63,187 nucleotides of DNA, filler included, from Jimgerdemannia flammicorona (GCA_003990765.1; 3 parts of 3 records of this genome joined end to end with filler, not necessarily neighbours in it), one strand, 5' to 3'; positions 7,134-60,837 are shown, numbered from the whole stretch's first letter. Notes: generated from the letters alone by a model not told the origin. Translations and numbers: made by a program.

Positions 7134-7757
7134 ATGTCTACTATCTATCACCAAACTACTCACTATAGCCAGCCCCTTTTAAGTCAGGTTGATCATCTTT
7201 TTAGATACATCCAGGTTTCTATTCAAGGAAGAAACCACTGCTCTGAGGCTGTTAACCTCTCTAGCCAGGACCTAGGACAGTATGTTCTTGACTACTATAA
7301 ACTCATCAAAAGAGCCTACCTTGCTACTAGCTACTTAGAAATTTGGTATGAATATGAAATTGGCCATCAACTTCTTCAATGTGCAAATGGCCTACCTACT
7401 AATCAGATCTCAGACTGAACCCATCTAGATAGGCACAAGCAAGGACTAGTCAAGAAAGTTCATCAAATAATATGCCATATACTCTTTATAATCTCCAATC
7501 TCAACTACATACAACTGAAGGACTTCCAGAACCTCTTCTTTCCAGAAGTTGATAAGCTAGAGATCAAGGTAGTCTAAGAAGCCAACTTCTGGATTATCCT
7601 TAAGTCTATTGACATTGAACTCCACTGGAGTTCCCTTCTGAATAACAACTCAGACCAATGGCTTCAAGGTCTCTCTAATCTCTTTAAAGGACCATCTATC
7701 CAAATAGATATTCTCAGACATAAGGATCAAGAATCCTACTTAGATAATCCTACCTAT
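7134..7757 (+). pseudogene. ORF-X accessory protein homolog, truncated by element B; probably lies in an LTR whose start I cannot fix
   Basis: Reading through two stops gives MSTIYHQ...SYLEIWYEYEIGHQLL...KKVHQIICHILFIISNLNYIQLKDF...LNNNSDQWLQGLSNLFKGPSIQI, collinear with the LTR ORF of element D. TATAAATA at ~7059 lies upstream. Confidence 0.8.
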
Positions 7758-9306
7758 TGTAACGTGCTGGCTCAATAGAGGCAAATTACAAGGTTGGGGG
7801 TTGATGTAGTTTGGCTTGAGCCCCCAGTTACTTTGTTAAAAGCAACAAAATGTTCTTGGTGTTTAGCGGTATAATAGTCAAAGCTGGATATCTGCGAGTG
7901 ATTTCCTTATTGAGACTGTTCTCTGGGTGTAGCGGCAATTTGTGTGTGAATGGGTTTCCTTCTTGGGTCAACTGGGAATGCCACAATAATTTGTGTAGCA
8001 CAACGATCTCCAAAAGTATGCAATTTCTGGGTATAACAGTCTGGCAATTTAGTGGTTCTCTTTCTGCAGTTTCTGCATAATGATCTCTGTATAGTGTGAC
8101 AGTTTTCAAAAGTATGCGATTTCTGAGTGACGGTCTAGGTGTGATGATCTTCATGTAGCGTGACAATTTTCAAAAGTATGCGATTTCTGGCAGATGACTC
8201 GATTCACTGGGAATTATATGGCACGGGTTCTTCTTCTGGGAACAATAGCTCAGATGGCGAGGATAATTCGAATAACTGGGAATAATGCTGGCAGCGGATT
8301 CTTCTCGGGCTCACTGGGAATAACGAATAACTCAGATAGCTCTTCTGGGAATGCGGATAACTTGAAAATGGCGAATGATGTGGATTCTTCCTGAATCGGT
8401 GGGCTTCTTGGAAATGGTGACTTCGACTGGGAATTAACTCAGGTGGTGCGGATTCTTCTAAATCGGTGGCTTCAACTAGGAATATGGCAGATAACTTAGA
8501 AACAGCAGGGTTTAACTGAGAAATGGGATGGCATTAGAAAGGGTCTCTTGGTAAAGTTACATCAAAGACTGGCTTCGTTTGCATGGGGTTGCATTGTAGA
8601 CTGGCTCCACTGCGAAGTTGCGTCAGAAACTGGCTTGAGCAAGGCGGCTTTCTCTTAGGCAGAAATCTTCAGGCTTATCTAGCAAGTGAACCAAAAATGT
8701 AGCAGCTTATTCCTTAAGCGGCGGATTACTCTTCAAAAGGGTGGCAAAGTTCTTCTTGAACTTGGGCGGCAAATCTTCAGGCTTATCTGGCAAGCGAACC
8801 AATAGTTTCAAAGGCGGCGAAGTTCTTCCTCGAACTTGGCAGCAAAATCAGCTTTGTATCAGAAAGTGGACCAGAGTAGAAAGGGGACCAATGCTCAATC
8901 TTTAGAGGCTTGTTTGGTATTTGTATTTTGGACTGAGGTTTTATTCACTCTCGCCTCTGGGGTAATTTATACAAGTTGGTTGCTATCTGGTTACTATGTG
9001 GCTAACTATAGATTTGCTATCTTTGGTAATGTTTGGGTGTGTCCTCTGGGTACAGGTGTGTCCACAGGACATGAGTGTGTCTGCAGGACATAAGTGTGTC
9101 TGTAGGACATGAGTGTGTCCACCGGACATGAGTGTGTCTGCAGGACACAGGTAAATAATCCTGATCTGGTGTCTTGGCTAATTATAAGTGTGGCAGGCAT
9201 GAGTAACTATGATATACTGGAAGTCACATCATGCTGAGTAAGTATGCTAATTGTTCGCATCATCTGACTAAGTTATAATTCAGGTAGTACATTTTGGTCT
9301 ATTATA
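7758..9306 (-). repeat. 3' LTR of element B
   Basis: Starts TGTAACGTGCTGGCTCAATAGAGG and ends TTGGTCTATTATA (decayed TGTTACA). Matches 16895-18308. Purine tract CAGTGGGGGCTGA abuts it on the minus strand. Confidence 0.95.
9036..9152. repeat. 19-bp palindromic tandem array (AGGACATGAGTGTGTCTGC) in U3 of element B
   Basis: Four full units plus degenerate flanking units. Only two full units at the same site in the other LTR (18076-18154). Confidence 0.9.
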
Positions 9307-9345
9307 TCAGCCCCCACTGAAGGGTAGTCTGCCTCAGACTATTCT

Positions 9346-9855
9346 TCAGTCATCACCCCAATAGGCATAAGCAGCTTCTGTATCTATACCTGTTCCATCA
9401 TCATCTGAGCTGTGGTCACTCCATTTCAGGGGCTCTTCTTCTTCCTCGGGAAATAGGATCTCTACTTGATGAATAATGCTGAGGTAGGTGGGCTGTGTCA
9501 TCCTTTGGAGGTCATTCAGGGAAAACTGGGTCTGGATTAAGGCAGAAGGATTTTGTTTATAGATTGTGTATAGTCTGTCTGCGGCAGTAGTATTCCTTCT
9601 GTTCAGGCCAGTGGTGTTTCGGACATAGGCTAGGTCGGGGAGAGGAAGATTCTGCAATTGTTCTCCAATTGCATAATATGCCTACAGCTGGTGGACCTGG
9701 AGTAGCCTCTCGGCCAAAGTGAGGTTCTCTTGATGAACTTGAATTCTCTGAAGATAGGTTCCATTGGGTTCCCAGAACTGAGGCAGGGGAACTGGTAGTG
9801 CTTGGAGGGAACTGAGAACAAGAGTTTGGAGGTGGTTGTCAATTCTCTAATTTAT
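9346..9855 (-). pseudogene. ORF-X of element B (170 codons incl. stop; between integrase and PPT)
   Basis: ATG->ATA and two in-frame TAG stops at Gln positions. Translation (I)N*RIDNHLQTLVLSSLQALPVPLPQF...HQL*AYYAIGEQL...AADRLYTIY...EEEEE...WGDD aligns end to end with 30525-31040. Confidence 0.9.
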
Positions 9856-9869
9856 GGTATGAGAAGTAT

Positions 9870-10915
9870 ATCTTGAGGCGATTGATGTGTACTGGTGTTC
9901 TCAGGGTTTGTCCATCTATGCTTCTTAAATAGATACTGGTTCCTCTGATGTTGTGTACAAGATAAGGTCCTTCTCATTTTGGTTCCAGTTTGGCAGCAAA
10001 GTTTGTCTCAATCATACTTCTCCAAACTAAGACTTGATCTCCAATCTTGATCTCCTGATCCTTCTGTTTTTGGTTATAGTACTTCTTTTGTCTTTTCTGG
10101 GCTTTGATAATCTATCCTTGGGCTTGATTTCGTAACTGTTCTGTCTTCTTGAGGAGGTCTCTGAGATTCTCATGGTCAGCGGTTCTGGTTTTTTTGGCAA
10201 ACATCATTTCGAATGGCTTTTGTTTAGTGGAGGTGGCAGGGGTATTCCAAATTTCCCATAGGATCTCAGGTAAGCAGAGGTCCCAATTAATAGGGTTGAC
10301 TTAGGCAAGTCCTTTCTTGATGGTCTGGTTCATTCTTTCTATCATGCCATTGGTCTGGGGGTAGTATGATATGGTCCTTTTGAGGTGGATCTTGTGAATT
10401 CGGGTATAACTTGTGATTATGTTGTTGATGAATTCTGTGCCTCAGTCAGAGATGAGTTCTTCCGGAGGTCCATATCTGAGTGTGAGTCCATAGAGGAGGC
10501 CTACAATGGTTAAGGCATCTGCAATTTCCATTGGGAAAGCCTCAGGCCACTTAGTTAGATGTTCTATGAATATAAGGATGTATTTGTTTCTTCTTGGTGT
10601 AACTGGTAGAGATCCAATTATGTCTACTCCCCATCTTTGAAAAATGTGAGTGGGTGGGGGAATCGATTGCAGAGGGGCTTGATAGTTCTTCTTTCCTTGG
10701 TACTTCTGGCAGGTGTTACATTTCTGGATGATGCCCCGAACTTGAGTTCTGAGGTGGGGCCAATGTTGATATTGTTTTCGAATCCTGTCTTCTATGCTTG
10801 TCTGTCCTTGGTGGGCCTTCTGATGTTCTTTTTGAATAAGACCTTCTTGTGCTTTGATAGTCTGAGGAGCTTCCTTTAGGGTGTGGTTCCTCAGGACACC
10901 CTTCCTCTGATTCAT
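9870..10915 (-). pseudogene. Integrase of element B (separate reading frame)
   Basis: HQKAH...CNTC zinc finger, WGVDIIG, LISD, YYPQTNGMIE, and KLEPK*EGPY. Confidence 0.9.
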
Positions 10916-12385
10916 TGGGGCTGGTGGGAAAGTACATCAACATTGTTGTGGGCTTTCCCTGCTTTGTGAATGATGGTGATTTTGTAATCCTGAAGGATAA
11001 GGATCCAGTGGACTAGAATTCCAGCAGGTTCCTTGCAGTTGAATAGTCATTTGAGGGCTGCATGGTCTGTGATCAGGGTGAACATTTTTCCGATGAGGTA
11101 ATGCTTGAACAGGGTGACCACCCATATGACTGCAAGACACTCCAGTTTGGTGCTACCATAGTTCATCTGCTGCTGGTTGGTGGCTCTGCTTGCATAAGCT
11201 ATCACATGGTGCTATTGGTCAGGTCCTTCTTGGGCTAGAACTGCTCCTAGGCCATCTTTAGAAGTATCTATATACAAGATAAATGGCTTCTGTAGATTGG
11301 GGTGCACAAGGATTGGTGCTATAGTCATGTGGTTCTTGAGTTCTCTGAAAGCTTTTTCTTGTGATTCTGTCCATTTGAAGGGTACTCCTTTCTTAAGAAG
11401 GATTCAGATTGGGGCAGTGATTTGGGCAAAATCTTTGATAAACCTTCTGTAGTAGGATACTAGCATCAAGAATGATAGTGTTTCCTTTGGAGTCTTGGGT
11501 ACTGGCCAATTGTTGATCTTCTCGGTTTTCTTTGGATCTGCATGAGTTCCTTCTTTTGAAACCATAAATCCTAAGAATTTGAGTTTCTGTTTTCCAAAGT
11601 AGCATTTCTTTGCATTCAGTCTCAGGTGATTCTTGTGGGTGAGCTTGAAGAATTCCTCTAGGTGGTGCAGGTATTCTTTGAAATTTGCTGAATAGATGTT
11701 GGAATCATCTATGTATATAATTAGACAGTGGTGGATCAAGGGGGCATACACCGAATTCATCATCCTCTGGAAGGTGGGGGGTACATTGCAAAGTCCAAAG
11801 GGCATTCGGAGGTATTCAAACAGTTTTCCTAAAGCAAGGAAGGCTGTCTTTTGAATGTCCTTGGGGTCCATGGGGATTTCGTGGAATCCTGCGAAGAGGT
11901 TCATACTGCTGAAGTATCTGGCATCTTGTAACTGGTCCAAAAGGTCATCGATTCTGGGTAAAGGATAAGCATCCTTTTCAGTGACTGAGTTGAGTTTTCT
12001 GTAATCCACACAGAGTCTCCATTCTCCTTTCTTTGGTACAATAAGTATAGGACTAGCCCAGGGGCTAGTAGAGGGTCGGATGACTCCATTGTCTAAGAGT
12101 TCTTGGATGTGCTCCTTTTTGAATATTTTCAAGTAATGGGGTATCCTATAGGGTTTCTGCCAGATGGGTGTTGCATTTCCTGTATTTATGCTGTTGTAGT
12201 ATGATGGGTTGTATGGTAGGTTGCTATAATCGGTGGTGAAGATATCTTGATATTTGTTGAGAAGTTCTACTAGTTGTTGCTGTTGTTGAGGTATCAATTC
12301 TTCTCTAATGTTGGTGGAAGGCTTCACTGTCTCCTGGGTCACAGAGGGGCCTTTCCTTTCTTCTGGAACCTTTTGCCATTTCCTG
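10912..12385 (-). pseudogene. pol: Reverse transcriptase and RNase H of element B
   Basis: PSTSPWASPILIVPKKGEWRLCVDYRKLN, MPFGLCN and YIDD in ORF 11404-12342. RNase H LYIDTSKDGLGAVL follows. Confidence 0.95.
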
Positions 12386-12734
12386 ATAGGTTTAGTTCAT
12401 AAACTTCCCTATAAGTTCAGTTGAGAAAAGGCACCAGATGTCCTATGATGGTTCCTTTTGGCAGGATGATGGTCTCCCAACTTTGGTTGGTTGCTTGGGA
12501 GTGTACTGGGTTCATCTTGTCAGGAAATGTGTATCCCTCTATATCCAGGTGTGGGATATCTTCCTTGGGTTCAAAGAAAAGGTTCCTGGGGTCGGGTGGT
12601 GCAAAGATTTCGAAGGTGGTTTGTTCTCCAGGCTCCAGGATGAGATTTTTGTGCAGTCTAACTGGTTGGCAGTATACTTGCTGGGGAACATTCCTCTTGA
12701 GGTAGTTGACTTGAAGGAGATGTACCTCTTTTCT

Positions 12735-13125
12735 GTCTGAACTTCCAAATCCCTCAGCTTGTCTTGTTCCTTCAGTTAGTTCAGAGACTTCCTGTAACTG
12801 TGGAGTCTTGACTTTCATGAAGACTGCTTGGGCAATCTTCTGTCCTCTAATGATTTGGTGCCATTCTGCACTGCTGTTGTATAGGATGATCTTGATTTCG
12901 CCTATATATCCAGGGTCAATGGTTTCTCCTTCTATAGTTATCCCTTGTCTGGCAAGTCCGGACCTTGAGGTCAGTTGAATATAAGCTCCTTAAGGTGGCT
13001 GCATGGCTAATCTGGTTCTGACCATGAAGGTTTTTCCAGGCTTGATAGATTCATCCTCCAGGCTGTGAAGATCATATCCTACATCCTCTGGGTGGGCTTT
13101 GGTCAGGGGTTTGGCCTTGGGGTGT
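12735..13125 (-). pseudogene. dut: dUTPase domain of element B (between protease and RT)
   Basis: KAHPEDVGYDL, SRSGLA, IDPGYIGEI, KIAQAV and TRQAEGFGSS motifs. Confidence 0.92.
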
Positions 13126-16100
13126 AGCAGGGCATACTGGGCAATGTCCTTGCTGAGTTCGGGCTTTCCTAAGGCTGAAGCTCCACTGGCGGAAAGCCTC
13201 CAAGCTCTAAGGTTGAGGTGTGGCCATCTGGCTCCAGTAGAGGGGTCTCAGAGGTAATTGATTCCCCTCCTTCCTATAGGGTCAAGGGCCTCTATGAAGT
13301 TGGTGGCATCTTCTGCCCATCCTTGGTGGGTTATATGTCTGATGAGAGCTAGGATATCTTCTCCCAAATCATAGATCTTGAGAATTCTTTTTCCAGGCTT
13401 CTTGGTCTGACTTTTTTGAATCTGACTTTTTCAGATCTGGCTTCAGTTATCTCCTTTCTTCAAGGTATGCACTGCAACATCATGACTGAGGTGAATCTTC
13501 TGATGTCTGTAGTCTCAGCAGTCAGGGTGTCTTCCATGGTTGCAATATCCCATTGCTCGGAAATGATGTTCCCGACTATTTATCTCTTGTTGTCTTGGGA
13601 ATCGGTACCCATCTTAATCATAGGTTGGGGGAAGGGTAGACAAGGGGTATATTTCTGTTCAGGTAAAGAAGCCTTGTCCTCTAAATTGACTTTGTAACCT
13701 TGTAGTGACTTCTTGGAAGGTGGTAGACTGTACAAGAGTAGTTGGGGGATCTGGTCTCTGGGGTCTCTGTCTTTCCTGTTGGTCCAACAGATGGCACTGA
13801 TAGTAGTAGTCTTGGGGAGAGTGGAAGACCATTTGATGTGAATATCTTCCTAGCCAAAAAGCTTTTTCTTGGTGGGTTTCTTTCTTGGGGATAATGGTGA
13901 TGGTGCTGAGTCCTTCCTCTGTATTCCAGGGGTCATTGCCTTCAGGTGGTGTCCACCAAGGGTTATCCCAGGGGATGAGTTCGGAGACTTCTTCTTCATC
14001 AGGTGCTTCTTGTTCAGGAACTTCTTGGTCAGAAGTTTCTTCTTCCTCGGATGATTCTTGACCCCAAATTGCTTGTACTTCTGCAGCTTTGGTCACAGGT
14101 GTTTCTAGAACATGTCTGTATTTCTTTTTCTTTCTTCTACATTCTGGACAGGCTGCACCAGGCGATTTCCTTGTTCCCATTATCTTGGAGGAGTGCTTGG
14201 GACACTTGTGTCTCTTGAGGTATGTGGGGCATCCTTTGGCTTCTCCTACAATGGCTCCAATGGCGATGGGGATGGTGTTCTTAGCCCACACATTGTCTTC
14301 TGGTCTGTCATCCACCAGGTTAATTTGTGGATTGAGTCTGGGATCATTTCCATCTTTGGATTCTTCTTCTTCTTCTGTAGTAGACTCCTCACTGCTGGCA
14401 TATTCTTCTTGAATGGTGACCTTCTTCTTCTTCTTTGATTACTCATAGCTGGTCACCTTAACTCTATACTTCTTGCCTCAGTAGTCAAACTTGAGTACTT
14501 GTTGGCCAATATCAATGACTGTATTCATTTCCTTCATCCAGTTGGTGCCAAGAATCATGTCATAGGTGACAGCTTCGGTGACAACAGCTTTGGGGATAGA
14601 GAACTGAATGTGTCTAAGGGAGATGGTGATATTTCATACTTCTCCAAGGGGTTGAGTTTGGGCTCCATCTGCTACTATGATGCTGAGGTTGGATGGTCCA
14701 TCAATGGGCCATTGGAGGGTGTCCAGGAATCATTTGGCAATGACACAGACAGCTGCTCCTGTGTCTATGAGGATTTTTGCTTTTTGTCCTCTGATATCTC
14801 CATGTAGGTAGGTGCTGACATGTTTTTCAGCTGCTTGAACAGGAATAGGAGCTGGTTCTTGCTGTGGGATTGGAACTTGGCCAGTGCTAGACCTTGTGGT
14901 TCTCAGTAATTTGTTTCGAACTCCAGCTGGTGTCAATTGCAAGAACTGCAGGAGAGGAACTTCCATCTTGGCTTCTTGAATCTTCTGCCAGGCTTCATTG
15001 TAAATATCCCTAGGCATGGTCTTTGGGGTGTACTTCTTCTTAGACTTTGGAGCAGCAGGTTCCCATTCTTCTTGTTCCATTTCTTCATCTTCTGGTGGCA
15101 ACTCATTTGTCTCAGGCACAAAAGGTGAGGGAGTTCGGGGAGGTGTTTCAACTTGTTCCTCCTCATGTTCCTCATCTTCTTCTTGAATGATTCTTCTGCT
15201 GATATTCCTGGATGGTCTTCCCACAGGTCTCTTTCTTTTTTCTGCTGGGTAGACTGTCTTTTAAGTGGTAACCTTGGTAGGGTACAAGTCTAGGTCACTA
15301 TAGTCTTCACTGTTGCTTGCTTCCTCAAAATCTTCAACAGGATGGGCTTCAGTCTTCTTGTACTGGGTGTCATTCCTTCGGTTTGGTGGTTCTGAGTCCC
15401 TTCGGTCACTTCTTTTGTTGCCACATTCAGTGGCATAGTGTCTGAATTATCCACAGTGGAAGCATTGGACTTGGGCTCTGTCTCGGGCAGAGTACCTTCT
15501 TTCTTCTTGCTGGTAATTCCTGTTATCTCTTGGTGGATAACCTTGGCTCCTCTGTGGTGGGTACCCTCTGTTGTTTTGGTAGTCCTGATTTTCGTGTATG
15601 GTGAGTTTTTCAATCTGTCCAACCAATCGGTCTAACTTGGAGCTGAGGTCTTGAATTTCGCTTCTATCCTTCTTTCCTTCCTTGGCTGGCCTTCTTTCTT
15701 CAGACCTTTCTTGTCCTTGAAGGAGTCCTTACAGGGCTTTGACCAGGATATCTTCTTTATCTTCCTTCTTGTCATGGTCACTCCAGGTAGTTCCTTGCCT
15801 GACATCGAAGAATCCTTGGGCTGCATCTACTTGCTCTTCAGACCTTCTGATGCCTAGGGTGCGGACATGCTGGGCAATATTCGGAGGAATCTCATTCATG
15901 AAGCTCATTGGACCTATGATGTCTTGGTTGGTGGCATTGAACCCGGCAGAATGCATTTTGTTCTAGATTCTTGTGAAGAAGGCTCTGGGTGATTCTCTAA
16001 GATTCATCTTCATTCCCATGATGGATTCCTGAGCCTTGTGGCAGGTTTCATTTCCTGCATACTTTTTTATGAGCCAGTAGACCATGGCCTGATATTCTAG

Positions 16101-16860
16101 CTCATAGGAGACTGCTGCTTGTATCTGTCTTGCTAGTTCGGAATCTGGGTTGTTTGCTGTTCAATGGAAAATCCCTCTGGCTGGTTCTCTGAGCTGAGCT
16201 TTGTAGATGGTGATTTTCCTTTTGTCTGAGAGATTCCTCAAGGCTGCGATTCCTTCAATTCCATCAAGGAATTCTCTGGGGTCTTCCTCTGGGTATCCTG
16301 CAAAGATTGGCAATGAGGTGGCCATTTCTTTGTCACTTTCTTCTGATTCTGGTTTGAATTCGGATTCTGATTCTGATTTACTTTCTGAACTGTCACTAGA
16401 GACCAGGGTGCTTGGGTATCTTGAAGATGGTGTTCTGGTCCTTAGATGAGATGGAGTAGGCCTAGGTATCCTTGTAGGAACTACTTCTGGTTCTGCAAGA
16501 GGTTGTGGTAGGGGTTCTATTGGTGAAATTGGTGGGACTGGTGTGGGGTATCTGGCTGTAAGGTGTTGGGTCCAGGTAATAAAGTCTTCTAGTTCTTGTG
16601 CAAGTTCTCCAAAATCTCCAGCAGGGCTGCCTGTATTGTCTGGTTGATCTGGTTGATCTGGCTGAGGATTTCAGGCTGTACTGCCTCCTGCTTCTGGTTG
16701 AGATTCTTCTGATGCTGGATAGTTGGCAAGTCTTGAGGTAATTACTTCTCTTCCAGTCCAGATGCTAGTGATGACTGGTTCTCCTGTAGTAGCAGAGGTT
16801 GGTGTTATATCAAATGTATCCAGTTTGACTGTGGGTTCTTGTGAGCTGAAAAGTCATGTT
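13126..16860 (-). pseudogene. gag: gag-protease region of element B, plus a long insert
   Basis: Capsid-like LPIFAGYPEEDPREFL (~16300). CFHCG*FRHYATEC knuckle ~15425-15465. Protease AKILIDTGAAVCVI ~14740-14785. Gag reads into protease in one frame apart from point stops. Confidence 0.88.
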
Positions 16861-16874
16861 GATTTTGAAATCGT

Positions 16875-16892
16875 TTCCCAGTTGAGCCCCCA
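16875..16892 (-). promoter_or_regulatory. Primer binding site of element B (tRNA-Pro-like)
   Basis: TGGGGGCTCAACTGGGAA 2 nt inside the 5' LTR resembles the tRNA-Pro PBS TGGGGGCTCGTCCGGGAT. Confidence 0.7.
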
Positions 16893-16894
16893 AA

Positions 16895-18308
16895 TGTAAC
16901 ATGCCAGCTCAATAGAGGCAAATTATAAGGTTGGGGGTTGATGTAGTTTGGCTTGAGCCCCCAGTTACTTTGTCAAAAAGCAACAAAATGTTCTAAGATT
17001 CCGGAGGTCCTTGGTGTTTAGTGGTATAATAGTCAAAGCTGGATATCTGCGAGCGATTTCCTTATTCGGACTGTTCTCTGGATGTAGCAGTGATTTGTGT
17101 GTGAATGGACTTCCTTCTTGGGTCAACTGGGAATGGCACAATTTCTGTGTAGTGTGACGATCTCCTTGTGTGTGACGGTCTGGCAATTTAGCAGTTCTCC
17201 TTCTTGGGTGATGGTCTCTGATTTCTGTGTGACAATCTCTTATGTAGCACGGCGATCTCCAAAAGTATGCGACTTCTAGCAGATGACTCGATTTGGCTCG
17301 CTGGGAATTGTATGGTGCTGATTCTTCTGTAGCAGGCTTCACTGGGAATAATAGATAACTCAGATGGCTCTTCTGGGAATGCGAATAACTTGAAAATGGC
17401 AAATGATGCGGATTCTTCCTGAATCGGCGGGCTTCTCGGAAAACTGGGAATTAACTTGGATGGATGGCGCAGATTCGGCTTCAACTGGGAATATGGTGGA
17501 TAACTCGAAAATGGCAGGTGACGCGGATTCTTCCTGAATCGGTGGGCTCTAACTGGGAAGTGGGATGGCGGCTTGGAAAGGGTCTCTTGGTAAAGTTATG
17601 TCAAAGACTGGCTTTGTTTGCACAGGGTTGCATTGTAGACTGGCTCCACTGTGAAGTTGTGTCAGAAACTGGCTTGAGTAAAGGCAGCTTTCTCTTAGGT
17701 GGAAATCTTCAGGCTTATCTGGCAAGTGAACCAAAAATGTAGCAGCTTATTCCTTAAGCAGCAGATTACTCTTCAAAAGGGCAGCGAAGTTCTTCTTGAA
17801 CTTGGGTGGCAAATCTTCAGGCTTATCTGGCAAGTGAACCAATAGTTCCAAAGGCAGCGAAGTTCTTCCTCGAACTTGGCAGCAAAATCAGCTTTATATC
17901 GGAAAGTAGACCGGAGTGGAAAGGGGACCAATGCTCAATCTTTAGAGGCTTGTTTGGTATTTGTATTTCGGACTGAGGTTTTATTCACTCTCGCCTCTGG
18001 GGTAATTTATACAAGTTGGTTGCTATCTGGTTACTATGTGGCTAACTATAGATTTGCTATCTTTGGTAATGTTTGGGTGTGTCCTCTGGGTACAGGTGTG
18101 TCCACAGGATATGAGTGTGTCCGCAGGACATGAGTGTGTCCTCAGGACACAGGTAAACAATCCTGATCTGGTGTCTTGGCTAATTATAAGTGTGGCGGGC
18201 ATGAGTAACTATGATACACTGGAAGTCACATCATGCTGAGTAAGTATGCTAATTATTCGCATCATCTGGCTAAGTTATAATTCGAGTGGTACATTTTGGT
18301 CTGTTACA
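16895..18308 (-). repeat. 5' LTR of element B
   Basis: TGTAAC...GTTACA termini. Homologous to 7758-9306 with several indels in the repeat arrays. Confidence 0.95.
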
Positions 18309-30524: not shown

Positions 30525-31040
30525 ATGAGCCAAAGGATTGATCAGTGCCTCCAGACATTGGTCCTCAGTTCCTTCCAAGCCCTACCAGTCCCTCTACCCC
30601 AATTCGGCCAAGCCAATGGAAGCCCCCTCCAGAGAATCCAAGTTTATCAAGAAAATCTCATCCTGGTCAGATGCCTACTACAAGTCCACCAACTGCAGGC
30701 CTATTATGCAATCAGTGAACAATTGCAGAACCTCCCAGCCCCAGAACAGACCTATATCAGGAACACCACAGGTCTGACCAGAAGAGACATTACTGCAGCA
30801 GACAGACTATACACCATTTACAAATGAAATATCACAGCTCTGACACAGGCACAATTCTCCCTGAATGATATTCAAGGAATGAACCCTGTTACCTATCTGA
30901 GCATCATCAACTCTGTCAAAATCCTGTTCTCTGAAGAAGAAGAAGAGCCCATAGAATGGAGTGACTCCAGTATAGACAATAAAGATGATGGAACAGGTAT
31001 AGATGCAGAAGTAGCCTATGCTTATTGGGATGATGACTGA
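30525..31040 (+). pseudogene. ORF-X of element C (172 codons incl. stop, one internal TGA)
   Basis: MSQRIDQCLQTLVLSSFQALPVPLPQF...HQLQAYYAISEQL...AADRLYTIYK*NITAL...EEEEEPIEW...AYWDDD. Confidence 0.92.
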
Positions 31041-31079: not shown

Positions 31080-32551
31080 TGTGACAAACCAAAACATACC
31101 ACTCAAATTATATCTTAACCAGATGACGTGAACAATTAGACAAGATGACGTAAACACACAGTATAGTAACCAGCAACTATTGCTGTAGAAAAACTATATA
31201 AATAGCCAGACATACCAGAAAGGATCTGTTTACCTGTACAGACTCTGTACACCATACAGACTCTGTATACTGTACAGGTCCTGTACACTGTACAGACTCT
31301 GTACACCTGCCATAAGTAGCAGATCTATAGTTAGCCACATAGTAACCAGATAGCAACCAACTTGTATAAATTACCCCAGAGACAAGAGTGAATAAACCTC
31401 AGTCTGAATTGAAGTGCAAACTAAAGAAGTCTCTAAAGATTGAGCATTGGTCCCCTTATTCCACTCTGGTCCACTTTCTGATACAAAGCTGAAGATTTGC
31501 CACCAAGTTCAAGGAAGAACTTCACCGCCTTTGGAATTATTGTTATTGGTTCGCTTGCCAGATAAGTCTGAAGATTTCCACCTTTTCCGCCTTTTATGCC
31601 ACCTAAGAGAAAGCTGCCTTGCTCAAGCCAGTTTCTGATACAACTTCGCAGTGGAGCCAGTCTACGACGTAACTCTGGGCAAACGAAGCTAGTCTTTGAT
31701 GTAACTTTGCCAAGAGACCCTTTCTAAGCTGCCATCCCATTTCCCAGTTAGAGCCTGCTGATTCAGGAAGAATCCGCATCACCTGCCATTTTTGAGTTAT
31801 CCACTGTATTCCCAGTTGAAACCGATTCAGGAAGAGTCTGCACCATCCAAGTTAATTCCCAGTTAAGCCACCATTTTCAAGAAACCTGCCAAATCTACAT
31901 CATCTGCCATTTACGAGTTATCCGCCACATTCCCAGAAGAACCCCGCCAATTCAGGAAGAATTTGCATCATCCGAGTTACCTGAGTTATCTGAGTTATTG
32001 AATTATCTGAGTTATTGAATTATCCGAGTTATTCGTCATTCTCAGTAAGCCCGAGAAGAATCCGCCACCAGCATTATTCCCAGTTATTTGAATTATCCAC
32101 ATCATCCGAGCTATTATTCCCAGTAAGGAGAACCCACACCTTACATTCCCAGTGAGCCAAATCGAGCCATTCACCAGAAATCACATACTTTTAGAGATTG
32201 TCATACTACATAGAGATCATCATACAGAAATTGTATAAGGAGAACTGCTAAATTGCCAGACCATCACCCAGAAATCACATACTTTTGGAAATTGCCTTGC
32301 TATACAAAATTGTGGCATTCCCAGTTGACCCAAGAAGGAAAAGACATATACATCGCCACTACACCCAGAGAACCGTCCCAATAAAGAAACCACTCACAGA
32401 TATCCAGCTTTGACTATTATACCACTAAACACCAAAGGACCTCAGAAATCTTAGAACATTTTGTTGCTTTTGACAAAGTAACTGGGGGCTCAAGCCAAAC
32501 TACATAAACCCCCAACCTTGTAATTTGCCTCTATTGAGCCGGCATGTTACA
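31080..32551 (+). repeat. 3' LTR of element C
   Basis: TGTGACA...TGTTACA. R/U5 is homologous to the B LTRs, while the U3 segment ~31140-31315 differs. Confidence 0.93.
31234..31306. repeat. 18-bp palindromic tandem array (CTGTACAGACTCTGTACA) x4 in U3 of element C
   Basis: Read directly. It occupies the same position (after TGTTTACCTGT) as the GGACA array in B. Confidence 0.9.
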
Positions 32552-35500
32552 CTATTTATAGACTATAATTCTTTTTTTAAACTATAAGAGAAACTCTTAC
32601 TTAGTGTAATAGTAATCTCAGTATTATTTGAGATTGATCAAATACATTGTAATCTGCTTGAATATACTAAAATATATCTACTATATATTTCTATTAGCAA
32701 TCTCTCTAAATATATTTAATAAACATACTCATAAAATGTATTCCCAGTAATTACATATTTTCTAATTATTGAAAAGACTCCTAAGAAGACTGAAAAAGAC
32801 TTCTTCTATAAAGTAAAAGCAGTTCTATATTATAGATATATATTATGGGTATTTTGTAGACTATCTGTAGTAGAAAAAAGATAATATTTGTAATTATAAA
32901 ATTATTTAGATAAAATTTTTATTTGATAGCTAATTATAAATATATTTTGTAGTAATATATATTATTATATATAGACCAGATAGCAAACTTTATGATTGCT
33001 ATTCAATAGTTATATTTTCATAGTTGATTATCCAAAGATATATTTAATCTGTCTAATCTATATGAATTAAGTTTATTCAAAATATATGATTTCTTACTTA
33101 TAATTTTTATGTCTTGATAAGATATATCCTCTATAAATAGTTTTTGAGATACAGAGAGTAGTTGTAAATAATACACAGATTTATCATTTGAAAGACAAAT
33201 ATAAAATAACTAAAAAGAGCCTTCAAGAGTATAAATTATAGAGATTAACTATATGTATTAATTTTACTTGTTTTCAAATAAATATTTTTTACTAACAATT
33301 ATATCATCTATTAACCAAACTCCAGAATATACTATGGAAACTACCTCTTACAAATATTTATTCAATAATTATATCTGATATGCTTTATTAAATAAAAAAA
33401 GATATCTGGGAACATTTGGTCAATCTAACTCTTAATCTTATTAAGAGTTTATTTGATACATATATAGCAAATCTGCTTATACTAGAGCTAGATCTCCATA
33501 TTTGACTTATTCCTCAATATTCTGGACTCAAAAAATTCTCTACTGAAATTTCAAATCTTAGTTAAATAACTATAGCCAAATATCAATAATTAATATATGT
33601 AAGTATTATATATATTATAGTAAGTTTATAAACTCTTTAACTTAAAAAAAAATCTTTTAAATGATATTTCTCTCATATGAGAGGTATTTTTAAATTACTT
33701 AGTATTGTCAAATATCTCACAACATTTATTGAGTAGTACTTCTATATCTTATTACTAGTCTAGACTAAAAAAATACTTATAGATTAAGATATACTATTAT
33801 ATATCTCAATTCAATAAACTAAAAGAGCAGTTTGCAGAGATCTTTTCAAGTTTGCTAAACTTTAAAAAACTCTACTCTCTATAGTATATTTCTGAGTTAA
33901 CTCAAATATTTAGTATATCAAATAATATTAATATAGAGATAACTAAATATCAATATTACATAGAAGTTAAGATACTATATTGACAAATGAATAAATATAA
34001 TTCTCTTCTCCAAGTTGTCAAGTTTGTAGAGTACTAAATAGTACTTGAGGACAAGCTTGATCATATTATAACTAGTAAGCTTATAAATATCTCAAGCTTA
34101 CTAACAACTAAGAAATACTGAAACCTGAGTACTAGTATCACTCTATATCAATAAAGTTTCAAAATTGTTTAGGCTATATAATTTTAAACTTATCACTCAG
34201 ATGTTTTTTTATAATCTCTGGTTTATATCTAGAAATAGATATCATTATTGAGTAAATAGAAAGAATCTTCCTAAACTTTCAAATCCAAGAGTAAGTTATT
34301 TATGTTAAACCAGTCTGTAAACTTTTTTTGTAATATTTCTAATATCTCTCCTTGATCTTTATAAATTAATATCTTTACCACTTTATCAATTGGAGTTTAT
34401 AATCTATTTATAAACACAAAATTAAGTTCAGCTATATTTTACTAACTTATATATCTACTATAATTAATAGTTCTATAGGAGTCTACAATATAACTAGATA
34501 GTATTATATGATCTTATAGACATGCAGTTTGAGATAAGATAAGGTATAGATAAATATCTTTTATTTAAGTTTACCTTCTCTTTAAAATTGAGTAAGATTA
34601 CTAAGTTTATCAACTTATATATATACTTAGAGTAGTACAACATAGTAGATATTGAGGATTCTAGTATTAAAAACATAGTCTCTCATAATTGTGAGATAGG
34701 AATACCTATCACTATATAGACTAGATAGTTCAATATTATATTTATAGATATAATTATTCATATAGTATATATATAACTCTTGTTTAAGAAATATAATTCA
34801 GTAAGAAAGAACTTAGTGAGTAGATTAAATATATATTCTTTTCATTCATATTTAGTAAATAAGTATACAGATCATATATTATAGAAGGAATTTTTTTAAA
34901 TATATATTTTATTTATAAACATACAGTTAGACTAAATAGTCAAGTATATAACAGTCATATGAACTTGGCATTACTTATAATTATGACTGGTTTTTATTTG
35001 AGAAGTGTGTAGTAATATTAGTAGTACATATATGTTCAATAATAAATTATGTATAATATAAGAGTCTATGGATTATTATTAAAACCAAATCTTTATTGAC
35101 ATAAGTTGAGATTTTTATTATAATATTTATGGTATTTATTGTTCATAGTATATATAATATAGTAGTATTTATAGTATAGTTTGTAGATTCATTATAGATA
35201 TATTTTATATAGTAAATATATCTCATCTTTTCATATTTAAATTAAATCTTATTTACTTATTTCTTATAGATGGTAGATCTGGTTTGGTATTAGGTAAGAA
35301 GTTATATCATAAATCTGACATACTTCTTTGACTACATATATTGTTTCACTTTTGATCTTTTTTTCTTCTAGTAAGATAAGGTAGTATTTTTTTAACCAAA
35401 TGAGTAATTACTATTTTTCATCCTTTCTCAGTCTTGTTATACTGAATTTGTTTGTTATATCACAATTTTTTACCAAATAGATAATTTTTCACAATAGTAT

Positions 35501-37953: not shown

Positions 37954-39993
37954 TGTAAGCGCACAACCTCCAAGCCACCGAAATCACACGTGACCTCCGA
38001 ACAAATCTGGAAATCACCTGCCTGATCACAAAGCTGAGTCAAACCGAAGTCACAGTGTACAAAGCTGAGTCAATACGAAGTCACGGAATACAAGATTTAC
38101 ACAAACAGAATCTTACCAATCAGAACCAAATGCATATATACCGAGCACCAAGACGCGTCGAAACAGAGAATCAAAACAAACAACAACCACAACTTCTAAA
38201 CACACAAACATGACCACTGAGATCTACAACCGCATCCGCGCCGACATTTGGAATGCCATTGTCAACCGAGCCACACCCCCTCTGCCCCTTATGAATATCC
38301 ATAGCCTAGCACCCCTCTACTTCGTGGAAGCCCGATGGAATGCCCTGAACATGCTTAACGAGGTCCACCGAATCGGACAAATCTCAAGCTACTACCAGAT
38401 CGGCCGCCTCTTGGAAGACATGGTCAAACACCACTATGACACAGACATTACCCAGATGTCTCAACACCAGAAGCTTATCGCCCGCAAACACCGAGAACTC
38501 TTCTACGAGTACAGCACCTTTATTCTCCGCCTCCGAGTTACTACCAGCGAAATGGTTGCTACCCTGTCCTATGGTCAAATCGATGACATGATACAAGAAC
38601 TCAACCACAAGTACCTCGAGTACATTGAAACCACAGACAGAACCTTCCCACACCCTGACGATCACATCCTGCAAATGCCCCAAGTTGGATATGCCATGAA
38701 GGACGTCTACGATATAATCCACTTCGATGAAGATGAAGCAGAAGACAATGATCCCTCTGATGCCGACATGACCTCCAGCCAAGGATCCCTGCCAACCCTG
38801 ATCACACCGCCAACCTTGCCGATGAACTTACAACAGTTCATAACTGTATATGAGACTTATTGGGACAATGACCACTGGCACGAATACCAACCCACGTTCA
38901 CCCCTGATTACTTCAATTACAATGAAGAGACCAGAGAACACAATCTGTACCTCCAGACAACCCTCGAGATTGAACCAACAACTCCACCACCCGAGTATGA
39001 GCAATATGAACCACAGCTGCCAACCTACTACAACCCCGCGACTCATAGCGCTGTGACCTATAGAAGGTATGCAGACAGCGAATCCGATGAAAGCGAAGAC
39101 AGTACACCCATCCTTCGCCCACCAACACCTTATCCAGCATACGAAACAGACGATGCTATTCTGTAGGATGGAGACGAAGTTCCAATGTATTACTACCTCA
39201 GCCAATAAGGAGAAGTAATCCACGAACCACTATTCCTAGACGACTACTTTATCAGAGATGATGCAATCGATGGTGATGTCATCGAAGACTATCCAGATAG
39301 TACCTAAACCTATAAATAGTCTAGCAGTTATAGTATAGATAGAATAGCCCTGTACGACGTGACTGTGAACTGACTCAGCAGTCAGACGATCTCTTGACCT
39401 GTCAGATTACTATTGTACTACGTGACTGCATTCCGACTCAGCAAAGCACTTAGTGCTACATCCATATCTAGCATAGTCCAGATAGCCCCTAACTAGTATA
39501 AATACCCCCTCCCCCAGACCTCAGAATCTCAGACTTAAAGACCTGAACAATCGGAACACAATCCCTGAGCACTTCCCCACAATACCCCTTCACACAACTA
39601 CTCCTAGTATAGCAATATCATGAATAGTGAATAAACCTATTTCATAACCCACAAACCACTCTTAAGTAAATCTGCTCCCTGTTAGGTCCTACTCCTAACC
39701 CCATCACGAAATTTCCTAATTGGGTATTGTCTGCAGCGATACACCAATTCAACTAAGCTGGTCTTAGTTTCTCGAACTTCCTGAAATACAGAAAATCCTG
39801 AACATCCAGAACTAGTCCGAAAAAGGACTTTGGTTGAGACGTCAACCCAATCTTGAAATCAATAAGCGTAGAGGATGTACTCCATACGAAATTGATCTTG
39901 ACCATAAGAAAACGGTCTTCCAGAATATCCAGAACTTCCAGAAAACCCTTCCAGAACTACGTAACGGTTACCCTAAAAAGCAACCCTCTTACA
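37954..39993 (+). mobile_element. Young solo LTR (2040 bp) carrying an intact gene
   Basis: TGTAAG...CTTACA termini. Perfect 5-bp TSD AATAA (37949-37953, 39994-39998). GTATAAATACCCC at 39497 and GTGAATAAACC at ~39627. CpGs retained. Confidence 0.92.
38210..39166 (+). CDS. Intact 318-aa ORF-X accessory protein inside the solo LTR
   Basis: Uninterrupted ORF with an A-rich ATG context and an upstream TATATA. The N-terminal ~135 aa aligns to the five decayed ORF-X copies. Acidic, Pro/Tyr-rich C-terminus. Confidence 0.88.
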   Translation: MTTEIYNRIRADIWNAIVNRATPPLPLMNIHSLAPLYFVEARWNALNMLNEVHRIGQISSYYQIGRLLEDMVKHHYDTDITQMSQHQKLIARKHRELFYEYSTFILRLRVTTSEMVATLSYGQIDDMIQELNHKYLEYIETTDRTFPHPDDHILQMPQVGYAMKDVYDIIHFDEDEAEDNDPSDADMTSSQGSLPTLITPPTLPMNLQQFITVYETYWDNDHWHEYQPTFTPDYFNYNEETREHNLYLQTTLEIEPTTPPPEYEQYEPQLPTYYNPATHSAVTYRRYADSESDESEDSTPILRPPTPYPAYETDDAIL

Positions 39994-52111: not shown

Positions 52112-53679
52112 TGTAACAGTGATCTCAGAATAATGATATCATCACAGGAGATAGCCTTTTCTTATAAGTCATCAGATCAGAGTATAAGAAGATTATATAG
52201 CATGACTCATCCAGACTACAAGATGAGTAATGATGACTAATCATGAGTTATTGTGACCACAAGACAGATATCTCAAGAAATATAAAAGAAGGATCAAGAA
52301 ACTATAGTAGCAGTAACCCAAACAAGGCTTATAGAAATAGTTCAAAAGACTTATTATAAACAAATATCTGCTGCTTACTAAATCTTAAGATCCAGAAATT
52401 ACCAAGACTCCTCAGTCCAGAAAAGGATATTCTAAGACATCAGAGGAGCTATGAGAACTTGTACAAAAAGGACTCCTAGCCTCAACCTGGGTACTGATGA
52501 CCCTTATCATTATATTCTCTACTGTTATGAAATAGAAACAAGGATTACCATTATACTGAATACCTCTAGATATAGCAGGAATATGAAATAGGAAATCTCC
52601 TCTGCTGGGAATTCCCTCAAGCCAGTCCTCAAGAAATACAAGATATCACTTTTATAGATATATATGAAATAAGGACAGACAAGAAGATTCATCAGATCTT
52701 CAGGTATATACTATAGTTAATCCCCAACTTTGAGTATACTAGAATCTCAGACTTTAAGGAACTATCAGCCTACTGTACCAATATACTGGAGGTCATAGTA
52801 GCCACAGAAGCTCAGTCCACTATCACTCTCAATAGTGATGAGATAGAAGAGTTCTGGAATCCCATCCTCTAGGACAATCTAGATCAATTCCTATAAGGAT
52901 TGATCTCAGCATTCCAAGGTCTTAGCATCCAGGTTAGATCTCTCCAAGACCCCACATTTGTTTCTTATTTTGTAGAAGAGAATCTCATAGATTGGAGAGC
53001 CCCAGACTTCCTTGATCTCTCTGCTGGTGAACATGATGACGTCACTAGCAATAACATCATCCTACATAATATATATGAAATAGACAAAATGTTTGTAGAC
53101 CTCATTTCCTTTAAGGACATCCTGATCTCTAGTAGTGATGAAGATGAAGCCCCTATGGTTCTGAATATTCTGCTCTAAGTTCTTAGTAATACTGAAATCT
53201 TCTGGCATCCTTTTTCTGTGTAACTGAATTCTACTAGCATTCTTTTTCTATAATACCTGAATCTTTAGATACTCTTTTCCTATACTACTGAAATCTACTG
53301 ACATTCTGAACTTGTGCAACTATTTGTACAGACACTTAAATTTATACTTATAACTATAGTTTTCTGTATTCTAGTATTTTATTTGGTTATTGAAATTTAT
53401 ATTTAGCTTTATAACTTAGTAACTATTAAATTATATTTTATATAAATACCCCTCTTATTTCTTTTAAAATAAAGTCAGTTCCAGTTTACTTATACTCAAT
53501 TCCACAAAAGTAATCTAAGAGATAACAAGACAGTTTAAAGATAAGAAGTTTGAGGACTATAAGACCTTAAGAAGGTACTCTAATAGGAACTTGCTTATAA
53601 CAAACTTGTGGTTAGTCTAAGAGATATATCTTGAAGAGAATCTGACATATTTGAAGGACTCAACAACTATTATATGACA
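52112..53679 (+). repeat. 5' LTR of element D
   Basis: TGTAACAG...ATGACA. Direct repeat of 59339-60837. Confidence 0.93.
52364..53178 (+). pseudogene. ORF-X in the 5' LTR of D
   Basis: ATG->ATA. Reconstructs to ...KRIF*DIRGAMRT...PSLNLGTDDPYHYILY...QEYEIGNLL...KKIHQIF...DNLDQFL*GLISAFQG...SSSDEDEAPMVLNILL. TATAAAAG at ~52281. Confidence 0.85.
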
Positions 53680-53739
53680 ACTTGGTGCCCATTGGCTAGT
53701 AATTCAAGACAAATTCCTCACTTTCAAGCTGAAAAATAA

Positions 53740-58970: not shown

Positions 58971-59338
58971 AAGAGAAGCAAAATATAATGACTGCCTATG
59001 AGGTTCTAGTCTGCAAATCATAATAGCATGTCCCATAATCAGTAGGAAATCTGTCTGGACTATTCTCTAAGAGATATAGTACTAGCAACTACTCATCTGT
59101 GAGACTTTCAAAGCCAGAGGAGTTCAAACCATCAACTGATTAGTTAAGATCAGAATCAGACTCTTACTCTATATAAAGAGAGTGACTCTTCACCATCATG
59201 CCAAAATACATAAGGAAGATGCTAGCCCATAAATACCACTTTTCAACCCCTTGCTAGAGATTATAAGATCAGCAATTTTTTTCAGGCTGGACCAATGAAT
59301 AAGAATATTCAAGAGAAGATCCTTATTCAGGAGGAAGA

Positions 59339-60837
59339 TATAACAGTAACCTCAGAATGATGACATTATCACAGGAGACAGTCTTTCCTTACAGGCCACC
59401 AGATCCAGACTACAAGATGAGTAATAATGACCAACTATGAGTCATTATGACCATAAGATAGACATCTTGAGAAATATAAAAGAAGGATCAAGAAACTGCA
59501 GTAGCAGCAATCCAAACAAGGCTCACAGAAATAGTTCAAAAGACTTATTACAAACAAATGTCTGCTGCTTACCAAACCTCAAGGTCCAGAAATCATCAAG
59601 GCCTCTCAGTCTAGAAAAGAATATTCTAAGACATTAGAAGAGCCATAAGGACCTGTATAAGAAGGACTTCTAGTCTCAACCTAGGTACTGGTAACCCTTA
59701 TTATTATATATATTCTCTATTATTATGAAATAGAAATAAGAATCACCATTACTACTGAATATCTCTGGATATAGTAGGAATATGAAATAGAAAACCTCCT
59801 CTGCCAGGAATTCTCTCAAACCAATTCTCAAGAAATACAAGATACTACTTCTATAGATATATGTGAAATAAGAATAGCCAAGAAGATTCATCAGATCTTC
59901 AGGCATATACTGTGGTCAATCTCCAACTTGGAGTATACTAGAATCTCAGACTTCAAGAAACTATCAGCCCATCATACCAATATACTAGAGACTATAGTGG
60001 TCACAGAAGCTCAGTCTACTATCACTCTCAATAGTGATGAGATAGAAGAGTTCTGGAATTCCATCCTCCAGAACAATCTAGATCAATTCCTACAAGAATT
60101 GATCTCAGTATTCCAAGGCCCCAGCATCTAGGTTAGACCTCCCCCAAGACTCCATATTTGTCTCTTATTTTGTAAAAGAGAACCTCATAGATTGGAGAGC
60201 CCCAGACCTCCTACTACTAAATATAATGATGTTATTAGTAATGATATCATCCTATGTGACATATGCAAAATAGATGAAATATTCATGAACCTCATTTTCT
60301 TTAAGGATATTCTGACCTCTAGTAGTAATGAAGATAAAGTCCCCATAGTCCTGAACATTCTGCTCTAAGTTCTTGGTAATACTGAAATCTTCTGGCATCC
60401 TTTTTCTGTAATACCTGAATCTTCAGATACTCTTTTTCTATACTACTGAAATCTACTGACATCCTGAACTTATATAACTATTTGTACAGATACTTGAATT
60501 TGTACTTACAATCATAGTTTTCTGTATTCCAGTATTTTATATAGTTATTAAAATTTATATTTAGCTTTATAACTTAGTAATTATTAAATTATATTTTGTA
60601 TAAATACTCCTCTTATTTTCTTTGAAATAAAGTCAGTTCTAGTTCACTTATACTCAATTATATACAAGCAATCTAAGAGATAATAAGACAGTTTAAATAT
60701 AAGAAGTTTGAGGACTATAAGATCTTAGGAAGGCACTCTAATAAGAACTTACTTATAACAAACTTGTAGTTAGTCTAAGAGATACACCTTGAAGAGAATC
60801 TGATATATTTGAAGAACTCAGTGACCACTACATGATA
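59339..60837 (+). repeat. 3' LTR of element D
   Basis: TATAACAG...ATGATA (decayed TG...CA), directly after the PPT. Confidence 0.93.
59558..60368 (+). pseudogene. ORF-X in the 3' LTR of D
   Basis: ATG intact: MSAAYQTSRSRNHQ... Includes ORF 59928-60131 (EYTRISDFKKLS...NNLDQFLQELISVFQGPSI). Confidence 0.85.

Follow-up and report, generated by a model that had tools for sequence, protein, structure and literature searches.

Extra genes in long terminal repeat (LTR) retrotransposons are known, few of them with a function, and a form borne by the LTR itself is unusual. Retroviral examples of genes in or overlapping U3 are sag of mouse mammary tumour virus (MMTV) and nef of human immunodeficiency virus (HIV). 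For retrotransposons, third open reading frame (ORF3) types common to diverse elements are described among the dUTPase-carrying elements of bdelloid rotifers (PMC5408684), and additional ORFs (aORFs) among plant LTR retrotransposons (PMC7264820). In fungal Gypsy elements the placement of the dUTPase is variable, and an 'add. ORF of unknown function' is drawn for some of them (PMC2864245); a term search of a paper on Rhizophagus transposable elements (PMC11075540) returned no mention of dUTPase. The rice elements Retrosat2, RIRE3 and RIRE8 carry ORF0 upstream of gag-pol, in the internal region (PMC3485330), the Caenorhabditis elegans Ty3/gypsy element Cer1 encodes CERV, involved in export of the genomic RNA (PMC10309623), and the Boty element has an antisense gene, brtn (PMC8365987). 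Here we analyse a stretch of 63,187 nucleotides, filler included, from Jimgerdemannia flammicorona (GCA_003990765.1; three parts joined end to end), called the window below, in which an initial annotation had proposed that six ORFs carried by several LTR retrotransposon lineages encode one shared accessory protein, ORF-X. The overall best explanation, which we hold with moderate confidence, is that ORF-X is a selected accessory gene found in two arrangements, the common descent of its groups being moderately supported.

Six copies of ORF-X in three groups

All six proposed ORFs are present, but the strand, frame and ends of several had to be corrected. They read as follows:

7134..7757, plus strand: ORF-X copy A, of the A/D type; 208 codons interrupted by 2 stops, ended at 7757 by the insertion of element B
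9346..9855, minus strand: ORF-X copy B, an ORF3 of the B/C type; 169 codons interrupted by 4 in-frame stops, with about 40 bp between its end and the 3' LTR of element B
30525..31040, plus strand: ORF-X copy C, likewise an ORF3 of the B/C type; 171 codons interrupted by 1 stop
38210..39166, plus strand: ORF-X copy S, 318 codons, open (P0001)
52364..53178, plus strand: ORF-X copy D1, of the A/D type, carried by the 5' LTR of element D; its frame has many stops and shifts once, near 52540
59558..60368, plus strand: ORF-X copy D2, of the A/D type, carried by the 3' LTR of element D; ATG kept, many stops and three frameshifts

These copies sort into three groups, A/D, B/C and S. Copy B is readable on the minus strand only, the plus strand being full of stops. 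The DNA beyond element B (18312 onwards) was considered as the remainder of copy A and rejected, being a fragment of a copia integrase. In the case of copy S, the relative P0002 stays open at the position where S has TAG and the S frame runs on to 39307 across two stops; copy S has thus lost about 47 codons, its ancestral end being near 39307.

ORF-X copies are genes under selection

Between copies B and C, the ratio of nonsynonymous to synonymous divergence (dN/dS) is 0.11 over 166 codons (73 synonymous differences, Sd, and 59 nonsynonymous, Nd), against 0.83 and 1.42 in the wrong frames and 0.14-0.37 in pol segments. Copy C compared with L001, one of two metagenome relatives, gives 0.145, so that B/C ORF-X as a whole (0.11-0.15) is comparable to the integrase control (0.10). 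For the six pairs among B, C, L001 and the second metagenome relative, L002, the proportion of synonymous differences (pS) is 0.66-0.80 and that of nonsynonymous differences (pN) 0.15-0.30. Moreover, open relatives of 171-172 aa with 73-74% identity (P0005, P0006) occur in other assemblies. Variation within the S type was read from contigs of four runs lying on the LTR: among the best 40 of 500 variant places, 19 are inside the ORF, 13 of these at third codon positions (binomial P 0.0019) and 14 synonymous. A and D, which are much more distant, show pN of 0.39-0.44 for a saturated pS of 0.74. The differences between D1 and D2 are spread evenly over codon positions (15/18/14), indicating that the D LTR copies decayed neutrally after insertion. 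The annotation had described ORF-X as selected, and on this point it is borne out: the copies are real genes under selection.

These results already contradict the idea that the six ORFs are not genes but frames left open by chance in 3' untranslated regions and long LTRs. Such an origin would accord with the stops that fill four of the six window copies and with the lack of a Pfam family match, but it is very improbable given that the low dN/dS is confined to the named frame, that the S variants are mostly synonymous, that A and D are 44% identical as proteins without DNA similarity and that open relatives exist elsewhere; the neutral decay in D concerns only the two LTRs of one dead copy.

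Two positions in at least three lineages

ORF-X occupies two places, a pattern that the initial annotation had missed: the B/C copies follow pol, and those of D and S lie within the LTR. According to self-comparison and domain scans the window is a nest of retroelements, in which the carriers of ORF-X are:

About 1166-7757, plus strand: element A, interrupted at 7757 by the insertion of element B
1166..7133, plus strand: internal part of element A, in the order dUTPase, protease (PR), reverse transcriptase (RT), RNase H, integrase (IN), Tf2-1-type SH3 and a chromodomain-like end, the last read from the translation and not a Pfam hit
6922, plus strand: tentative LTR start of element A, TGTAAG
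7758..18306, minus strand: element B, LTRs 7758-9304 and 16895-18306, 90% identical, internal order PR, dUTPase, RT, RNase H, IN
26873-32554, plus strand: element C, 5' end truncated, same family as element B with 87% DNA identity
31080..32554, plus strand: 3' LTR of element C, beginning TGTGACAAAC behind a G-rich tract
37954..39993, plus strand: solo LTR S, 2040 bp, TG..CA ends, 5-bp AATAA duplication at 37949-37953 and 39994-39998
52112..53680, plus strand: 5' LTR of element D, TG..CA ends, followed at 53683 by the primer-binding site TGGTGCCCATTGG
59339..60838, plus strand: 3' LTR of element D, directly preceded at 59329-59338 by the polypurine tract AGGAGGAAGA

The carriers have the characters of Ty3/gypsy LTR retrotransposons, namely a TG..CA LTR pair, a primer-binding site, a polypurine tract and the pol order PR-RT-RNase H-IN, as seen in D (both LTRs, primer-binding site and polypurine tract), B (both LTRs) and C (3' LTR). 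Element D is flanked by TATAT and TGTAT, a possible duplication with one transition difference. Conserved pol segments are 35-41% identical among A, D and B/C, and the dUTPase lies ahead of PR in A (2387-2705) and in the PR-RT interval in D (55920-56300) and B (12417-12989), B and C being alike; a variable placement is likewise described for fungal Gypsy elements (PMC2864245). The lineages are therefore distinct, as had been claimed, and at least three dUTPase-bearing Ty3/gypsy lineages carry ORF-X. The earlier call of S as a solo LTR holds as well, since its TG..CA ends are bordered on both sides by the AATAA duplication. Copies of S-type LTRs abound in one soil-metagenome run as well as in runs from two coded organisms, and in run X4 one contig extends beyond 39991 with TTGGTAGCAGCAG, which we read as primer-binding-site-like; full elements with S-type LTRs therefore probably exist.

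In element C the ATG of ORF-X overlaps the pol stop (ccATGAgc), its frame differs from that of the integrase and the gene ends 40 bp short of the LTR start at 31080. The metagenome relatives L001 and L002 have ORF-X placed in the same way, behind the integrase C-terminal module. B/C, L001 and L002 thus present a sense-strand ORF in a separate frame between the end of pol and the 3' LTR, as expected of an ORF3-class additional ORF; D and S do not, their ORF being inside the LTR. No ORF-X-like reading was found within the 3' LTR of C (31080..32554). A C-terminal extension of integrase was also considered and rejected, for the B/C type on account of the different frame and of the gene's own ATG at the pol stop, and for D and S because a polypurine tract and the LTR start separate ORF-X from pol.

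In D the gene lies wholly within both LTRs, in S within the solo LTR, and copy A is probably inside an LTR too. A TATA box is found 68-76 bp ahead of the ATG in S, D1, D2 and A, and S and D have a second one downstream:

7059-7066, plus strand: first TATA of A, TATAAATA, 68 bp before the ATG
About 38134-38140, plus strand: first TATA of the S LTR, TATATA, about 70 bp before the ATG
39497, plus strand: second TATA of the S LTR, TATAAATACCCCC, downstream of the ORF, in a form common to the D LTRs
Near 39632, plus strand: AATAAA of the S LTR
52281-52288, plus strand: first TATA of D1, TATAAAAG
59475-59482, plus strand: first TATA of D2, TATAAAAG
53441 and 60599, plus strand: second TATA of the two D LTRs

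The S signals were read directly from the sequence, and the functions given to them here are presumed ones. In S and D the second TATA has the form TATAAATAC[C/T]CC and lies a few hundred bp past the ORF. It would be the promoter of the genomic RNA, and on that reading ORF-X of S and D lies in U3.

Several other observations concern S-type LTRs. The start of the S LTR (37960-38110), upstream of the first TATA, contains short repeated motifs (GAAATCAC, AAGCTGAGTCAA, GAAGTCAC) that are possibly enhancer-like; the contigs that represent other copies have loose ends and joints in this part, suggesting a variable number of repeat units. In run X11, record 13, a 9.6-kb contig is about 80% identical to S 38909-39093 near its own 5' end; the sequence ahead of this match is still ORF-X-like, so that the contig possibly represents a relative of full length whose 5' LTR carries ORF-X. 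The deepest contigs of runs X11 and X20, whose label as RNA is a guess, cover 39586-39857, past the second TATA, and ORF-X is thinly covered; contig depth cannot rank the parts of a stretch and we draw no conclusion from it.

Relationship between the three groups

The annotation had stated that the families share no DNA similarity, which holds at blastn E<1e-10, and that the six ORFs align as proteins. The latter is clear within groups: A finds D2 by tblastn with E 3.8e-24 (44% over 130 aa, a level equal to that of their RT), and the B and C proteins are 71% identical. Between groups, BLASTP is not significant and profiles give modest signals. With the first profiles, 3 of 1000 shuffles scored as high as B/C did against S, and 24 of 1000 as high as A/D did against S. 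When L001 and L002, which are 49-53% relatives, were added to the B/C profile, it matched S with 11.6 bits, a score reached by none of 2000 shuffles; conversely, the scores of the S profile against L001 and L002 were reached by 6 and 2 of 2000. For a joint S+B/C profile against A, D1 and D2, the counts were 19, 9 and 1 of 2000, and D2 was its best match outside S and B/C in a six-frame scan of the window (E 0.007). The cross-group signal increased with each added diversity. Profile-profile alignment by hhalign, the check on which the proposed family depended, gave P of 0.019 for S against B/C and 0.0083 for S+B/C against A/D, and in both comparisons the observed score was reached by none of 70 column-shuffled controls.

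The N-terminal profile of each group was also used for blind six-frame scans of the 1266 segments of the window. The S profile ranked B 2nd and C 6th, the A/D profile ranked S 2nd, and the B/C profile ranked D2 3rd and 5th and S 4th, all in the right frame. The best local alignments are mutually collinear around a Y-[YE]-x-I-G core and a [KR]-x-H-x-[IL]-[FY] helix, of which L001 holds an intermediate form, ATKRIHALY. From these sequence comparisons, S and B/C probably share descent; for A/D a common descent with them is somewhat less probable, and a single family comprising all three groups is moderately supported. So is the linking place of S, which lies in the LTR as A/D does and is closest in sequence to B/C.

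Wider searches returned few relatives. The exhaustive search with S found 2 close fragments and 1 other match, P0004 (E 3.5e-6), which was rejected as an artefact because this six-fold repeat protein also 'matches' 24 unrelated Pfam families. Viral contig scans gave no relatives for S or for B/C, metagenome contig scans none for S and 2 for B/C, and a word-index search with A none. In a protein atlas, the top scores for S were 0.77-0.78 and the matches included two Mucoromycota-labelled clusters, which is a lead only; a pol segment matched generic RT clusters with no usable taxon.

One match of the B/C profile fell outside the ORF-X copies, on an alternative frame of the D integrase C-terminus at 58867-58980 on the plus strand (13-14 bits and a window-level E of 0.004; the 14.4 bits of the shuffle test were reached by none of 1000 shuffles). 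The matching reading, TRYQGNYFLA.KTLRDHTAYYGI.EQTQEVP.TYIRE, has three stops and overlaps the integrase GPY/F module in another frame. The corresponding alternative frame did not match the B/C profile in C, L001 and L002, the frame of B being uncertain there. An origin of ORF-X by out-of-frame duplication of the integrase 3' end was considered and not retained: tests at the level of DNA gave no support, between 28 and 286 of 500 shuffles scoring as high as the observed pair. The match may be either chance or a trace of the origin of the gene.

Protein features and a model for ORF-X

The tails of ORF-X are acidic and rich in aromatic residues, as initially noted, with a net charge of -14 to -42 and 6-13% aromatic residues. 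The reported absence of an env-like transmembrane segment is likewise confirmed, the maximum 19-residue Kyte-Doolittle mean being 0.86-1.14 in open copies. ORF-X is thus not env-like, and Pfam shows no viral glycoprotein family in it. The N-terminal domain is near neutral to acidic (charge +3 to -11) and not basic. A Pfam scan at E up to 1 gave nothing beyond noise, and a search of Protein Data Bank (PDB) sequences (E up to 10) gave BAK as best match, at E 0.25-1 for S and 1.3-1.5 for B/C, none of them significant; no already described domain is thus recognised. In particular, Sag, Nef and Tas showed no relation in Pfam at E up to 1 and no PDB sequence match below E 0.25.

AlphaFold2 was given residues 1-150 of S (2-row alignment) and the B/C family (6 rows). 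Both models, at low confidence, are all-helical, with similar helix boundaries (H3-19, H34-55, H59-73 and H85-110 in S; H2-16, H34-66 and H86-100 in B/C), which is consistent with the helical protein foreseen by the annotation. In the tails we noted W-acidic motifs, IEWSD and, at the very end, YWDDD in B/C, and YWDND in S. The B/C motifs are kept in the four of four B/C-type sequences with an unbroken C-terminus (C, B, P0005 and P0006); L001 has a stop in place of the W codon of the motif, and the A/D tails end differently. Such motifs may resemble kinesin-light-chain or Arp2/3 binding motifs.

We suppose that ORF-X is an accessory protein encoded by the elements themselves. It would consist of an N-terminal helical domain of about 130-150 residues, with the conserved Y-[YE]-x-I-G core and, about 30 residues past it, the [KR]-x-H-x-[IL]-[FY] helix, followed by an acidic, aromatic and probably disordered tail of variable length. 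In B/C and in L001/L002 the gene is a third ORF, which begins on the stop codon of pol and reaches almost to the polypurine tract. In D and S, and probably also in A, the gene lies downstream of both the polypurine tract and the start of the LTR; ORF-X would consequently be part of U3, be copied into both LTRs and survive in solo LTRs. This form has its own TATA ahead of the ATG and would stand upstream of the genomic-RNA promoter. A shift of the polypurine tract could have carried the gene from one arrangement to the other, a step that we infer only.

The B/C pair suggests in addition that the gene and the adjoining pol have unlike histories. The synonymous divergence (dS) between B and C is 1.55 in ORF-X and 0.14-0.35 in pol, and their LTRs are 72-81% identical for 87% in the internal region. 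Either the 3' module, ORF-X plus LTR, is older than the adjoining pol or it has been exchanged; the data suggest recombination between element lineages. Taken with A/D ORF-X being as conserved as RT, this mismatch suggests an exchange of the 3' module between lineages.

Concerning function, ORF-X may act in trans as a protein-protein adaptor, which fits the near neutral to acidic N-domain and acidic tails better than a DNA- or RNA-binding protein. It is possible, although doubtful, that it serves as a co-activator or counter-silencing factor for its own LTR, reaching DNA via a host protein; the trans-activating or counter-silencing role is drawn by analogy. A further extension, which we find rather unlikely, would make ORF-X one old modular gene, exchanged between pol lineages and carried into U3 by a shift in the polypurine tract, there forming a self-contained promoter-gene cassette of every LTR and acting in trans for the family as a co-activator or counter-silencing adaptor.

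Alternative explanations

Several results weigh against a single family of selected accessory genes of this kind. BLASTP between groups in a six-sequence database is weak for S and C (E 0.03-0.05) and gave no signal for S and A/D. The S profile alone misses A, D1 and D2 (407, 134 and 442 of 1000 shuffles) and the B/C profile misses A (705 of 2000) and D1 (214 of 2000). The hhalign probabilities are just 1-5%. Depending on which groups are paired, the P values for a single family lie between 0.02 and less than 0.0005; for proteins that are helical and biased in composition, a null made by shuffling is lenient. No bridge from S to B/C or A/D came out of the exhaustive search (1.84 billion representatives). 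The AlphaFold models have a mean predicted local distance difference test (pLDDT) score of 49.8 (S) and 49.2 (B/C), and thus provide no fold evidence. The LTR location of A is a probable one, its 5' LTR lying outside the window and its 3' end being truncated. Finally, the N-domain charge speaks against direct DNA or RNA binding and indicates no partner. The main alternative to common descent is that three unrelated, lineage-specific 3' ORFs arose independently, their resemblance being owed to a similar make-up, with a helical N-part and an acidic tail, and to one short motif shared by chance. We regard it as doubtful but deserving serious consideration: the BLASTP and hhalign values, the failure of the S profile on A/D and the lack of intermediates in the exhaustive search count in its favour, one group has the gene as an ORF3 and the others have it in U3, and extra ORFs of LTR elements are often unrelated between families (PMC5408684, PMC7264820). 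It accounts less well for the reciprocal top ranks in the blind scans, for observed scores that none of 2000 and none of 70 shuffles reached, or for a signal that grows with added diversity. Four motifs are moreover collinear in all three groups, the second helix motif is intermediate in L001, and S joins the position of A/D to a B/C-like sequence.

If a selected accessory gene of common descent is retained, its mode of action can be conceived otherwise than as an adaptor to a host DNA-binding protein. The annotation had seen in ORF-X a protein that itself binds DNA or chromatin and, with an activation domain, trans-activates the LTR or lifts silencing, on the models of Tas/Tax and VANC. The acidic and aromatic tail, the location in U3 beside the promoter with a TATA of its own, the retention of the gene in solo LTRs and the analogy with retroviral 3'/U3 genes would all suit this view; we nevertheless think it unlikely, as the N-domain is not basic and neither Pfam (E up to 1) nor PDB sequences (E up to 10) show a DNA-binding or trans-activator family. 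The main alternative to a co-activator is a trafficking, export or assembly adaptor, whose W-acidic tail motifs would recruit host transport, the actin machine or an export factor and so move particles or genomic RNA. The presence of these motifs in all four B/C-type sequences with an unbroken C-terminus, a non-basic N-domain as expected of a protein-protein adaptor and the precedent of a non-env third protein in RNA export (PMC10309623) are compatible with it. An arginine-rich RNA-binding stretch is lacking, the A/D tails end differently, the motif resemblance is short and nothing ties the protein to particles, so that we judge this possibility quite unlikely.

Mutational signature and other features of the window

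The two D LTRs (52112-53680 and 59339-60838) are 86.5% identical and differ by 195 transitions and 7 transversions, and those of B (7758-9304 and 16895-18306) by 117 transitions versus 12 transversions. In the D pair 105 of 170 C/T or G/A differences are in CpA context, and copies compared with S differ chiefly by C>T and G>A. LTR-pair divergence thus carries a signature like that of repeat-induced point mutation (RIP) or deamination, which fits a fungus. AT-rich blocks with GC of 0.22-0.28, at 32-37 kb, 40-42 kb and 60-63 kb, may be end products of RIP-like decay.

Two long interspersed nuclear element (LINE) copies with endonuclease and RT domains, 77% identical, complete the map:

21119-26874, minus strand: LINE copy
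45757-51508, plus strand: LINE copy

Both are GC-rich (0.5-0.55), and their GC skew is very strong (0.4-0.5). Two copies, 80% identical, of a repeat about 1.17 kb long with a GC content of about 50% are present at 3-1165 and 18947-20113. The second copy splits the copia integrase fragment (18312-18900 and 20114-20300) and has (TA)n and a T-run on its left, a poly(A)-like tail if the repeat is on the minus strand; it is possibly a 5'-truncated non-LTR retroposon. Small AT-rich palindromic repeats (37296-37575 and 40181-40379) flank the solo LTR within AT-rich DNA; they match each other in direct and inverted orientation and look like miniature inverted-repeat transposable elements.

Comparison with known systems

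Should the TATA ahead of ORF-X drive its expression, every LTR would amount to a small gene. In that case a solo LTR would not be mere regulatory debris, and the members of an element family could sustain one another in trans. Under the promoter-gene cassette model, solo LTRs would supply a trans-acting factor to the whole family, a shared good encoded in a repeat. The same gene in two positions of related elements, conserved at RT level despite about 40% identity in pol, would be a concrete case of modular exchange and of a shift of the LTR boundary.

Among the described systems, ORF3 and aORF genes share several features with ORF-X. The B/C form is an additional sense-strand gene situated between pol and the 3' LTR; ORF-X lacks an enzymatic domain, its evolution is faster than that of pol, and it is common to elements with distant pol. 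However, no sequence relation to a described ORF3 type was found in Pfam, and the absence of a transmembrane segment sets ORF-X apart from env-like ORF3. Half of the ORF-X copies are inside an LTR, and LTR-located ORFs are absent from a term search of the plant survey (PMC7264820). In the titles and abstract openings that we covered, we found no selected protein gene inside a retrotransposon LTR outside retroviruses; supplementary tables may list extra ORFs.

CERV is, like ORF-X, a non-env, non-enzymatic accessory protein of a Ty3/gypsy element, and Cer1 needs it in trans (PMC10309623). No similarity to ORF-X was found, and the RNA-export role is that of CERV (PMC10309623). ORF0 also combines very long LTRs with an extra, fast-evolving ORF that is conserved in the family, with a nonsynonymous rate (Ka) well below the synonymous one (Ks); unlike ORF-X, it lies upstream of gag-pol, neither in the LTR nor after pol, in plants, and its sequence is unrelated (PMC3485330).

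The presumed U3 form of ORF-X can be compared in position with MMTV sag and HIV nef. ORF-X has neither sequence similarity to them nor a hydrophobic anchor, its host is a fungus-like genome and not a vertebrate, and it appears to have its own TATA about 70 bp upstream and not to depend on a spliced message. As with these retroviral genes, its coding sequence would be in U3, upstream of the presumed genomic promoter; D has it in each of its two LTRs, and S keeps it as a solo LTR.

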